From contig JAZLJP010000041.1 of assembly GCA_045617985.1 (NCBI GenBank), positions 1,922 through 65,921 on the forward strand: DNA of 64,000 nucleotides, read 5' to 3'. The notes beneath the pieces were generated by a model. The model was not told the DNA's origin. It was given only the letters and a program-made list of their open reading frames with translations, and made no database searches. Position numbers and translations under genes: made by a program. Each line of letters starts with the position of its first letter. Positions within the stretch are counted from its first letter, which is position 1. Below, piece by piece: positions 10,529 to 25,301 of the stretch. The stretch comes from Kiritimatiellia bacterium (GTDB lineage: Bacteria; Verrucomicrobiota; Kiritimatiellia; RFP12; UBA1067).

Positions 10529-10658
10529 CTTCCCGTTCTCCTTTCTCCGTGAAGGGATAGTATATCAAAATTTCAACCGAAGAGGAATCGTCCCTACGTC
10601 TGGAGTTTACCCATTTCTCAGCCTCCTGCGCGCCGAGCGCTCCTGCCCCGTGCGGGTG

Positions 10659-10741
10659 GAGGCTCGCGCGGCTTCGGAGCCGTCAGCCGAACGTACCTCA
10701 CGCGGAGGGCGTACGCTTGCCCCCGAAGCCGCACGAGCCTC
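10659..10741. repeat. Imperfect inverted repeat (19-bp arms, 18/19 match, 45-nt loop) at the left junction of the low-GC island
   Basis: GAGGCTCGCGCGGCTTCGG (10659-10677) pairs with CCGAAGCCGCACGAGCCTC (10723-10741). The right arm abuts the first base of the segment shared with paralog D. The stop codon of truncated paralog A lies in the loop. Confidence 0.6.
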
Positions 10742-11225
10742 GGTCACCGCATGATCGATCATTGCAGAATTTCCGAAAGATGTCAACATCGATTGGGAAC
10801 GAATAGGGGTCGCGCGGGGGAACATATCGGCAGTCGAGCAGACACGCCTTCTCATCCAGAAGCTTTCGCAGAACAATGCGAAAGGGATTGGATTCAGAAT
10901 GTTCTTGCGGCGTGGCACATTCGGTCCGATTGGGATTTAGATAGTCCTCATATCTGTACCCTTTCTTGCCTGCGGCCTCAACATGACGGTCTTCATCTTC
11001 TTCAACTGGGGCGACAATCCTCCCGTTCTCCGTTGCCTGGAACCATTTCTCGTGAGGGACGGGATACGGGCTGCCGTCAGGCAAGTCCCACCACTTCAAT
11101 TTCACAAATGCACCGGGAACAGGATGCCCTTCCTGATCAGTGACCAGGAAGTGAACTGATCCGCCAAACAATTCTCCAAGGGACAGATAGGACAAACAAA
11201 CGACAATCATCTCTTTCAGTTTCAT
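10698..11225 (-). pseudogene. Truncated member (A, 175 aa) of the island paralog family. It keeps only the N-terminal third and ends in unrelated GC-rich sequence.
   Basis: MKLKEMIVVCLSYLSLGELFGGSVHFLVTDQEGHPVPGAFV... aligns with paralog D up to ...FCNDRSCGDR, then diverges (GSCGFGGKRTPSA*). GAGGAG precedes ATG 11225. The conserved TTN..G.IATTNRV and HRYPPRPD regions are missing. Confidence 0.6.
10741..10893. repeat. 153-bp segment about 97% identical to 14808..14960 (paralog A versus paralog D)
   Basis: Direct comparison of the two stretches shows only about 4 substitutions. The encoded peptide NPFRIVLRKLLDEKACLLDCRYVPPRDPYSFPIDVDIFRKFCNDRSCGDR is identical in both. Confidence 0.85.
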
Positions 11226-11370
11226 ACAAACTCCTCTTTCAGACATGACGACGTAGAAGTCTACCTTCGTATTTTGCATTGCGACATTTCCGTTCAGCAG
11301 GGAAGGACGAGTCAGAAACAGTCCTCTATGCCCAAACGCCTCCATCCCCGAACCCGTGAATCATACCACT

Positions 11371-12558
11371 CTATTCTGGAAGAGAAAGCGTATGAGCCTC
11401 ATTACACAATCGATCAAGCTCCAACGCCTTGTCGCGATAGAGAGAATGGGATGAATCAAGTTCCTTTTGATAAGGAGCAGTTGCACGCACAACCTCCTCC
11501 TTGGTCGCTTGAGGATGCGACTTGCGAAACTCTTCGATCTTCATGTTCAATTCATACCGGCGGACATGCCATTTCGAAATCTCATCCTCCAATATTCGGC
11601 GCCTTTCCAAGTTAGCGGCTCTTGCCTTCAGATCCGGATGGCGAGGATAAATGCGATCCAGCAATAACGAACGCCAGGCTTCCTGCGTCAAATCCCGAGC
11701 ACATTCACTTCCGATTTTCTCAATCCGGTCATCATATTCGAATTCCCTTCGACCATAGGGATTCAAAATCGAACGTGGAATGGAAATATGGAAACGCGGA
11801 TCTGACGGTTTAGTCCGCACAACGCCACTCTCGTTATCGAACGGCAGCATCATGAACACCTGGGGGGTCCGTGTGCGGAGATATAGCGTGAAGGACGAAT
11901 TGGTGTAGACCTCCTGCGAGACTTCGACATGTTTCACGTACCCTTTGTCTGGAGCGACAAACACCCGATTGGTCGTGGCAATAATACCAGAACATTCATT
12001 GGTCGTCCAGAATGCCACAGTCCAACAATTCGACTCGGCGTGAAAAGATGGGCAAACATGGAAATCCCGATACCCATCACCCTTTGAATCGTACGCTTCC
12101 CTTGATTCGGCATACATATCGACAGTGATCGGTTCGCACTTCCCACCATCGCAATAATAGGGATTACTATAATTGCAAACAAGGCAGAAGGAACGAGCCG
12201 GCTCTTTCTTTCGCAGGACAATCCGATAGGGGTTATCCTGCGGAGCTCGACTGGGGATCAGCACCTTGTTTCTGCCAGGATTCAAATATCTTTCATACAC
12301 ATAACCATCCTTTTTCGCATCGAGAATCTCAACCCATCGCTTTAACGACATATTCGTATCGGCACGACCATCGCGAGCAGATTTCAAAGTTTCCCTTTTA
12401 GGAGGCAAGAGACTTCCTGAAAAGTTTTTTTCGTAGTAACCAATACTGATTTCACAATCTTCGACAGGAACACCAAATTGGTCCACGACCATCAAATTAA
12501 CCGTAGGGCGAGAGAGAAGAAGCCACGGCATCAACAACAGAAGGACACACGATTTCAT
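11371..12558 (-). CDS. Secreted island paralog B (395 aa), unrecognised family
   Basis: Signal peptide MKSCVLLLLMPWLLLS. The family motifs are all present: NPYRIVLRK, TTNECSGIIATTNRVFVAP..GY, FTLYLRTRTPQ, NPYGRREFEYDD and RIYPRHPD. The C-terminal charged heptad-like tail ends in HTLSLPE. GGGAGGTG precedes the ATG. Confidence 0.8.
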   Translation of the reverse strand: MKSCVLLLLMPWLLLSRPTVNLMVVDQFGVPVEDCEISIGYYEKNFSGSLLPPKRETLKSARDGRADTNMSLKRWVEILDAKKDGYVYERYLNPGRNKVLIPSRAPQDNPYRIVLRKKEPARSFCLVCNYSNPYYCDGGKCEPITVDMYAESREAYDSKGDGYRDFHVCPSFHAESNCWTVAFWTTNECSGIIATTNRVFVAPDKGYVKHVEVSQEVYTNSSFTLYLRTRTPQVFMMLPFDNESGVVRTKPSDPRFHISIPRSILNPYGRREFEYDDRIEKIGSECARDLTQEAWRSLLLDRIYPRHPDLKARAANLERRRILEDEISKWHVRRYELNMKIEEFRKSHPQATKEEVVRATAPYQKELDSSHSLYRDKALELDRLCNEAHTLSLPE

Positions 12559-25114: not shown

Positions 25115-25210
25115 GTAGAACCACCTTTCGTTCCGTCGGCAAATCGCAATCAGACACCCGCCCGACCACTTCGCCAACGAGGTTAACAACATTTCGGAAA
25201 CCACGCCGAC

Positions 25211-25239
25211 AGTATAGCGCGATTCAACAAAAGATGCAA
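25211..25239 (-). promoter_or_regulatory. Promoter candidate for the giant gene
   Basis: The minus strand reads TTGCAT (25239-25234), a 17-nt spacer, then TATACT (25216-25211). This lies about 95 nt upstream of ATG 25114, in an AT-rich divergent intergenic region. Confidence 0.35.
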
Positions 25240-25292
25240 GTAAAAAATCAAAGAAATCGAAAAAAATATTTTCACACAAACGAGTGGCAAAT

Positions 25293-25301
25293 TGCTATAA
25301 T
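25293..25301 (+). promoter_or_regulatory. Extended -10 promoter element (TGCTATAAT) upstream of the 25350 gene
   Basis: A perfect TGnTATAAT lies 48 nt upstream of the ATG. A weak -35-like TTCACA is at 25271-25276 (19-nt spacing). Confidence 0.45.

Follow-up and report, generated by a model that had tools for sequence, protein, structure and literature searches.

Organization of the island

The DNA analyzed here, termed the window, is a stretch of 64,000 nucleotides (nt) from contig JAZLJP010000041.1 of a Kiritimatiellia bacterium. Its subject is an island at about 11 to 25 kb, in which the gene for a giant protein with a predicted serine hydrolase at its C-terminal end (the tip) is accompanied by a family of paralogous genes, designated E, D, C, B, and A, and by a detached fragment of the hydrolase (the orphan tip). 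A preliminary description of the sequence had likened this arrangement to a polymorphic-toxin locus with tandem immunity genes.

The list of open reading frames (ORFs) and their translations bore out the gene order and co-orientation given in that description, all ORFs of the island lying on the minus strand. The first gene encodes the giant protein (17630-25114, as judged from the ORF list, the translation and the start context; the mechanical ORF is 17630-25279, with a TTG at 25279). It is followed by paralog E (16386-17630, likely start 17618), the candidate cognate immunity protein of the giant tip, and then by a spacer of 533 nt (15853-16385) between E and the orphan. The orphan hydrolase tip (15286-15852; 188 amino acids (aa) from the first Met), recognized by BLASTP similarity to the C-terminus of the giant, precedes its partner, paralog D (14063-15283). 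The D-C intergenic region (13855-14062) contains a tandem pair of 26-nt repeats and leads to paralogs C (12592-13854) and B (11371-12558), both extra candidate immunity genes with no tip upstream, and finally to paralog A (10698-11225), a truncated remnant of the N-terminal ~175 aa.

Two tight junctions reported in this array were also seen, namely an overlap of the giant stop codon with an ATG of E (TAATG) and the start of D only 2 nt past the orphan stop. A second ATG of E, at 17618 and 12 nt downstream of the first, follows a better ribosome-binding-like site (GAGGTGG), and is considered the likelier start because of this site and its match to the start of the closest homologue.

The average G+C content in 1-kb windows was found to be 0.427-0.584 at 11-25 kb compared with 0.57-0.685 in the flanks, with a minimum of 0.43-0.46 in the 3′ third of the giant gene. 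The reported drop in composition is therefore real, but milder than the hand counts of 33-52% against 55-75% had implied. Low G+C is a trait common to the related loci, which derive from Kiritimatiellae metagenome-assembled genomes (MAGs) and metagenomes (chimeric assembly at repeats being possible) and are denoted here by L numbers; it is thus not proof of recent import. Pfam scans of the seven island proteins and 30 flanking ORFs of the 64-kb window returned no secretion-system family, in agreement with the reported lack of a dedicated secretion marker. Rfam gave no credible match in the island or the related loci, promoter and terminator scans of the island were at chance level, and no tRNA was found in the window.

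The giant protein

The giant is 2,494 aa long from a likely ATG at 25114, which lies behind a ribosome-binding-like site, GAAAGGTGG. Residue numbers given below for repeats and for the catalytic triad follow the numbering of the mechanical ORF. A predicted Sec signal peptide (25034-25114, minus strand; MRIVSRGSVSAVGAALVVLISILAVA\|SEE) was read by eye from the sequence rather than with a predictor; its N-region is basic, its core hydrophobic and its cleavage motif AVA. Both the start site and the signal peptide of the protein could thus be read as had been proposed.

Behind the signal peptide lies a Tyr-rich region of OCRE-type ("YYD") repeats (approximately ORF aa 100-770; 22970-24982, minus strand), with nine stretches matching Pfam OCRE (E=8e-44) and 35 [YF][YF][DE] triplets between aa 96 and 790. 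It is followed by bacterial TSP3 repeats of the calcium-binding DxDxDG type (approximately ORF aa 1000-1170; 21770-22282, minus strand), which matched TSP3_bac with E=3.6e-22 in the full protein and, in six stretches of a sub-fragment, with E=3.4e-30. OCRE and TSP3_bac were the only families returned by the Pfam scan of the giant, with no match to RHS, TPS/FHA, PAAR, VgrG or LXG. The scaffold had previously been described as unfamiliar; its repeats do score as Pfam families, the YYD repeats as OCRE alongside TSP3_bac.

The middle of the giant and a conserved pre-tip domain (19160-21769, minus strand; FWVNDDFDV, NCDDDVIG, and CFRDLEDFDRLH) follow. The middle has no Pfam match and no PDB sequence match; this middle/pre-tip region is 35% identical to the gene upstream in L001. 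The pre-tip motifs are common to P0001, P0005, P0006, and L016, and the domain accompanies the hydrolase in homologues. Homologues of the giant itself were found in L014 (39% identity over ~2,250 aa), where OCRE matches are likewise present, and in L007 (40%).

The last ~436 aa (17630-18943, minus strand) had been described as resembling an alpha/beta hydrolase, and this assignment is supported by conserved motifs and by DUF900 profile matches. The motifs LLVLGWNV, THSQGN, NRQDYAL, and HYDHS stand out in the alignment of the tip, whose general pattern runs from a strand with GW behind it through the nucleophile elbow (T/A)HS(Q/M)GN to NRxDYAL and HYxHS. Candidate triad residues are Ser2240 (codon 18560-18562), Asp2369 (18173-18175), and His2523 (17711-17713). 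HSQGN, NRxDYAL, and HYxHS are kept across homologues of 30-50% identity, and the tip motifs persist even in L016, where the tip is only ~30% identical.

Of the eight sequences aligned for the tip, six matched DUF900 (PF05990), mostly weakly (best E=4.6e-7). Against a gathering threshold of 20.5 bits, P0006 scored 30.0, P0001 18.9, L016 17.7, and L007 11.2. DUF676 and Tle3 appeared in the alignment below threshold only, the latter with E=0.08 in three of the eight sequences. A word-indexed homology search among 5.8 billion proteins returned six relatives of the tip; two of the six carry DUF900, and both of those with a named source come from a Kiritimatiellae MAG. From its motifs and these profile matches, it is predicted that the giant ends in a Ser-Asp-His alpha/beta hydrolase distantly related to DUF900.

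A change of frame was observed in the giant of L014 (~6380-6576, and the same in L015) after SLAIGQIDMGG, with loss of the HYxHS (His) motif. It agrees in two independent assemblies, and the hydrolase may be inactivated in L014 while the paralogs persist.

The paralog family

Pairwise identity among the paralogs is 29-36%, and signal peptides are recognizable in their sequences. The truncated A resembles the N-terminus of D (62% identity) and that of an L005 paralog (80% aa identity), while C and B are identical to P0184, entered on an NCBI contig of 103 kb, and P0009, respectively. E has a homologue of 92.7% nt identity in L012, with a ratio of nonsynonymous to synonymous substitution rates (dN/dS) of 0.23; between D and the first L005 paralog, aa identity is 71% and dN/dS 0.22. 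Positive selection on the paralogs overall was considered and rejected, dN/dS being ~0.22 and at most 0.40 (E codons 201-300). Judged by these ratios, the paralogs are real, maintained genes under purifying selection. Their signal peptides fit a periplasmic action.

The preliminary description had called the candidate immunity family unfamiliar, and it remains so after database comparison. No Pfam or NCBIfam family was assigned to the paralogs, with only a sub-threshold match to CarboxypepD_reg at the N-terminus, which was also the sole Pfam match over the family region in scanned members (10 clusters sampled). They have no PDB sequence match and no match to Lif or any other described partner or immunity family. 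An AlphaFold model of E, built on an alignment of 72 sequences, was of high confidence (predicted local distance difference test (pLDDT) 90.6; predicted template modeling score 0.84) and consists of a prealbumin-like sandwich (26-128), a second beta domain (137-272) bearing the invariant motifs of the family, and three long helices (286-394). The model found no Foldseek match at E<=1e-3 in PDB or BFVD. The prealbumin-like sandwich was rejected as a fold counterpart of E, as the match is generic and the query template modeling score is <=0.19.

Word-indexed protein searches were insensitive for the paralogs (one to four matches), and an exhaustive profile search was used instead. With clusters defined at 50% identity, the family comprises 396 clusters when the cutoff is E<=1e-3 and 168 when it is E<=1e-10.

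Orphan tips

The window orphan is 34.5% identical to aa 2323-2547 of the giant (BLASTP E=2e-32), and nothing else in the giant matches it; its homology is confined to the extreme C-terminus, as had been claimed. It keeps NRKDYAL (Asp) and HYGHS (His) and lacks the half with the Ser nucleophile, and its closest relative is a full-length tip, P0005 (49%). An orphan tip followed by a paralog was found also in L005, L007, and the distant L016. The orphans, that of the window included, are of unequal length, with homology that extends over ~225, ~120, and ~72-93 aa and in every case reaches the extreme C-terminus. The orphans are accordingly sub-domain fragments, carrying the Asp/His half or the His end only and in no case the Ser nucleophile, a property that went unnoticed in the preliminary description. 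Since the orphans lack the Ser and all end at the C-terminus, exchange seems to occur within the catalytic domain, and the variable, partner-matched part of the tip seems, from these alignments, to be its C-terminal half.

Related loci

A paralog was found directly 3′ of the tip in 7/7 other hydrolase loci read past the hydrolase stop. The tip stop and the paralog start overlap or lie <=15 nt apart in L001, L002/L003, L004, L009/L010, L007, L014/L015, and L016. Two paralogs follow the tip in tandem in L002/L003, and in L014/L015 paralogs follow a giant whose length is at least 2,191 aa and whose scaffold has OCRE and TSP3 repeats. L007 opens with the giant and two paralogs; after a spacer filled with repeats come a paralog, the 98-aa orphan, a further two paralogs and one truncated paralog, while L005, from a Kiritimatiellia MAG, has a paralog, an orphan tip and a paralog ahead of housekeeping genes. 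L005, L007, and L012-L015 appear to be one species or population.

The deeply diverged L016, with paralogs ~25% and a tip ~30% identical to those of the window, has a large protein (pre-tip domain and hydrolase), two paralogs, an orphan, a paralog and a second large fragment. Its orphan, of 98 aa, is 72% identical to the end of the main tip, and the second large fragment matches the part of the main gene upstream of the tip at 84% identity. The reproduction of the layout in related loci indicates that the three-part architecture is old and conserved and not an accident of the window.

Other collections yielded little, as a scan of genome contigs returned one locus, a scan of metagenome contigs with the paralog pattern gave no match, and tblastn of plasmids with D and with the tip also gave none. 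In L007, the array is directly followed by a pair of genes (13028-15142), one for a 527-aa protein of no Pfam family and, adjoining it, one of the CesT family (type III chaperone-like); this pair is missing in the otherwise matching L013.

Apparent exchange of tip and partner

An indication of exchange came from L002 and L010, which belong to one MAG and whose contigs start at the same base. The first 100 nt are 100% identical; identity is 80-90% in the N half of the hydrolase, 55-66% at the hydrolase 3′ end, ~50-70% over most of paralog 1 (one 100-nt window reaching 84%), and 97-98% in paralog 2. The hydrolase proteins are 90% identical in their N halves and 72% in their C halves. The similarity matrices of tips and partners correlate (Mantel r=0.70, p=0.001, nine pairs).

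Cassette content also differs between close relatives. L012 is 96-99% identical to L005 in shared flanks but has an extra E-like gene that lacks an upstream tip gene and is preceded by only ~17 nt from a hydrolase 3′ end. The cassettes upstream of a shared set of housekeeping genes, at one chromosomal site, are not the same in L014 and L005. From these comparisons, the tip and the following paralog appear to be inherited and exchanged as a unit in relatives.

Mosaic identity was also observed among the paralogs themselves. A and D share 156 nt at 97% (10740-10895 and 14807-14962), and in L005 the first paralog resembles A over its 5′ portion (89% nt) and D over its 3′ portion (81%). Between D and E, the final ~50 nt of the genes, with ~20 nt downstream, are 88% identical (14044-14112 and 16364-16432), although the proteins are otherwise ~33% identical. 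It is evident from these patterns that the paralogs recombine.

Intergenic DNA

The 533-nt spacer had been described as structured. Three palindromes and a local hairpin (~16243-16284) are indeed present, but the fold of the whole spacer is not significant (z = -1.37), with 8 of 100 shuffles folding at least as well. The palindrome GGGGACWGTCCCC has five copies in the window (<=1 mismatch), all in intergenic DNA of the island, compared with 0.06 expected by chance. Three are located in the spacer (16291-16303, 16225-16237, and 15930-15942) and two in the D-C intergenic region, one in each 26-nt repeat (13882-13894 and 13908-13920). The motif also occurs three times in L005, beside paralog genes.

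A second, larger element of ~210 nt begins with the palindrome GGGGACAGTCCCC and has inverted arms of ~40 nt. Copies were identified in L005 (3526-3735 and 1308-1503), L007 (4387-4585, 6070-6265, 6315-6520, 9820-9957, and 11568-11645), and L012 (430-637), and a remnant of 44-51 nt lies just after E in the window (16317-16367). The element is present in the arrays of L005, L007, and L012-L014, and in the DNA compared was found only inside arrays. Its copies are 90-95% identical, although they lie between cassettes with proteins just ~30% identical. The element folds as a long hairpin (-104 kcal/mol), a structure with no covariation available behind it. The inserted E-like cassette of L012 begins exactly at the 3′ end of a copy. 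No Rfam match was obtained for the element, and pattern scans of metagenome and viral collections revealed no further copies. It may be a recombination site, a miniature inverted-repeat transposable element or a transcriptional element. Its conservation across species was considered and withdrawn, the loci concerned being apparently of one species or population.

Interpretation of the locus

Taken together, the island is probably a Sec-dependent polymorphic toxin locus in which the immunity proteins are periplasmic and tip/immunity modules have been displaced; we infer this function from genomic logic alone. Several of the features by which polymorphic toxins are recognized were found in it, namely an exported multidomain protein with a signal peptide and a C-terminal hydrolase, a linked downstream partner, and stand-alone tip cassettes. 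The logic of toxin, tandem immunity genes and orphan tip proposed in the preliminary description is further strengthened by the conserved linkage of tip and paralog, the recurrence of orphans, the divergent block between near-identical flanks, the co-divergence of tip and partner, and cassette content that varies between strains at one site. An effector role of the tip is also supported by Cinquedea, a secreted DUF900-type hydrolase of Haloferax described as a bactericidal phospholipase (bioRxiv 10.64898/2026.06.10.730825).

In the proposed mechanism, the giant would be exported by Sec and then released or displayed via a general route. The target of its hydrolase would be an ester bond in the envelope of competitor bacteria, most likely that of a membrane phospholipid. 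In the periplasm, E would bind to the hydrolase's variable C-terminal half and neutralize the enzyme, shielding the producer during export as well as sister cells, while D, C, and B may protect against tip variants of other strains. The orphan tip with D would represent a module displaced, or held in reserve, through recombination inside the hydrolase gene.

Several observations weigh against a toxin/immunity function. The window tip has no Pfam match of its own and no PDB sequence match, profile searches included, and its AlphaFold model, built on an alignment of eight sequences, was unusable (pLDDT 47). As the model failed and the tip lacks its own Pfam match, the fold and triad depend on motifs and weak profile matches. 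Cutinase and other Foldseek matches of the tip model were discarded, being weak (E>1e-3) and obtained on this unusable model. The giants of different loci are ~40% identical over their whole length, which departs from the expectation that the scaffold is conserved and the tip hypervariable; conserved flanks around a variable tip were seen only in L002/L010, possibly two strains in one MAG, and the Mantel correlation could result from linkage alone. The paralogs are large (~400 aa) with strongly conserved motifs (TTN, GIIATTNRV, AP..GY, NP.G.R..E), a combination not typical of fast-evolving immunity proteins and one that would suit a conserved biochemical role just as well. P0093, a distant member of the family, has no hydrolase in the two genes upstream, on a short contig that ends just downstream. 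Lastly, no candidate for an outer-membrane route was found among the 37 window proteins scanned (64 kb of genome).

Lipase/foldase and phospholipase/inhibitor gene pairs are known, and the giant could alternatively be an esterase/lipase, secreted or on the surface, that serves feeding or interaction with a host, with the paralogs acting as Lif-type chaperones or PhlB-type pre-secretion inhibitors and no interbacterial conflict involved. Translational coupling of a partner with a signal peptide agrees with this view, as do the conserved motifs and purifying selection of the paralogs and the further giant, presumably exported enzymes encoded in the window, including a GDSL lipase. However, a single enzyme needs neither four to five partners at 29-36% identity nor an orphan tip with its own partner, as found in four loci. 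The divergent block of L002/L010 and the gain and loss of partners between strains are also left unexplained, and the paralogs have no Pfam match to Lif or any other family. A role of this kind is consequently regarded as unlikely. The lack of other secretion components in the window, together with the co-variation of the paralog with the extreme C-terminus, a frequent site of secretion signals, could instead point to MafA-like partners for export or outer-membrane translocation of the tip, in which case the orphans would be alternative secretion modules or cassettes for antigenic variation of an adhesin. MafA has been reported to be an outer-membrane secretion factor specific to MafB (PMC7738311). 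It is, however, not usual for export factors to be multiplied and diversified. In L012 an E-like gene is kept without an upstream tip gene, and the model of E, composed of two beta-sandwich domains plus a bundle of three helices, shows neither a beta-barrel nor a lipobox, nor any membrane segment other than the signal peptide. An export function of the paralogs appears quite improbable.

That the family is merely decaying after duplication, with the orphans and A as debris, the linkage historical and no current coordinated function, would account for the truncation of A, the missing Ser half of the orphans and the lost His motif of the L014 giant. It is very hard to reconcile with an intact E, D, and giant, with a dN/dS of ~0.22, and with an architecture kept between loci whose proteins are just 25-30% identical, and is given hardly any credence here.

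Within the toxin/immunity interpretation, a bolder form is conceivable, if doubtful. The paralogs would then form a large unrecognized family of periplasmic immunity proteins with a fold absent from PDB, paired with a DUF900-related hydrolase that is re-specified by swaps of its C half and not of the whole toxin domain, perhaps at the ~210-nt element, and the carrier would use an undescribed outer-membrane route of the Planctomycetes-Verrucomicrobia-Chlamydiae bacteria.

Kiritimatiellae are common and mostly uncultured in gut, rumen, and sediment, and the way they compete is almost unstudied; a full-text literature search returned no paper naming both polymorphic toxins and Kiritimatiellae. 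If the toxin/immunity interpretation is true, the locus would provide a new family of toxin tips (serine hydrolases related to DUF900), a carrier scaffold of a new kind, and a new and fairly widespread immunity family of confidently predicted fold without PDB counterpart. Toxin specificity would be re-tooled by a joint swap of the inhibitor and a portion of the catalytic domain, and DUF900-like hydrolases, along with ~170-400 clusters of hypothetical proteins, would gain a first functional handle.

Other features of the window

Beyond the island, the minus strand encodes several further large proteins. A 1,559-aa ORF (45579-50258) has LamG and F5/8 type C domains, a 1,274-aa ORF (50338-54162) belongs to no clear family, and a 1,797-aa ORF (56762-62155) has a GDSL lipase and a Big_5 domain. 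The organism invests heavily in giant, presumably exported proteins. An ORF with a Fic-like C-terminal domain (Pfam Fic-like_C, E=6e-16) is located at 62336-63406, also on the minus strand. A strong positive AT skew of 0.32-0.42 was recorded at 28001-31000, over minus-strand FecCD/TrkH/TatC genes, and again at 3001-4000; it is probably a codon-composition effect of hydrophobic proteins.

Comparison with known systems

Tandem exported immunity genes behind a serine alpha/beta hydrolase predicted to act on the envelope from the periplasm recall the Tle1-5/Tli pairs of type VI secretion systems (T6SS); lipases of these systems with tandem periplasmic immunity genes were reportedly described by Russell and coworkers in 2013. 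Unlike those loci, the window has no VgrG, PAAR, Hcp or T6SS core family among its 37 scanned proteins. The effector of the island is a 2,494-aa protein with a Sec signal, whereas Tle effectors are spike-delivered without one. Its tip falls in no Tle family (DUF2235, Lipase_3, DUF3274/Tle3, Tle4, PLD), with Tle3 reached at E=0.08 and below threshold only, and its partner family is unrelated to any Pfam family.

With CdiA/CdiI and Rhs systems, the island shares displaced orphan tip/immunity modules downstream and mosaic identity, and the orphan of L016 keeps upstream homology that could support recombination, as in the orphan modules of CdiA/Rhs. The TPS domain, FHA repeats, VENN, and CdiB that characterize CdiA were absent from the giant Pfam scan and from nearby ORFs. 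The RHS/YD repeats and PxxxxDPxGL core of Rhs proteins are similarly lacking, with no RHS_repeat match at E<=0.1 in the giant. A weak co-annotation of an Rhs protein with OCRE has been reported (PMC7400221); as the Tyr repeats of the giant score as OCRE and that co-annotation is weak, the resemblance to Rhs is considered superficial. The island further differs from CdiA/Rhs in having no sharp conserved boundary motif, exchange apparently taking place inside the catalytic domain.

Cinquedea of Haloferax resembles the island tip in being a secreted, antibacterial alpha/beta hydrolase of the DUF900 neighborhood, a likeness at the level of the family. It differs in being archaeal, small and a single-gene unit with no immunity partner reported.

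Sec-dependent polymorphic toxins with a signal peptide only are a recognized class (Zhang et al., 2012; PMC3482391, Table 1), and on the strength of that table the absence of a secretion marker from the island is not anomalous. In this class, of which the MafB/MafI proteins of Neisseria are the best studied, as in the island, the signal peptide is the sole trafficking mark and the toxin domain is C-terminal, with an immunity gene directly downstream, spare C-terminal cassettes with their own immunity, and a compositionally distinct island. MafB/MafI loci differ in having MafB-N (DUF1020) and mafA, neither of which was found in Pfam scans of the island and flanking ORFs. The OCRE-type Tyr and TSP3 repeats of the island scaffold are not among the repeats listed for the class in that source (PMC3482391). 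The island is further set apart from the class by a DUF900-related tip, by exported immunity candidates of ~400 aa from an unclassified family, and by orphans that are partial-domain fragments as opposed to whole toxin domains. By its domain content the locus is no member of the Tle, CdiA, Rhs or Maf families, and it probably represents a previously undescribed toxin/immunity system whose component families are new.

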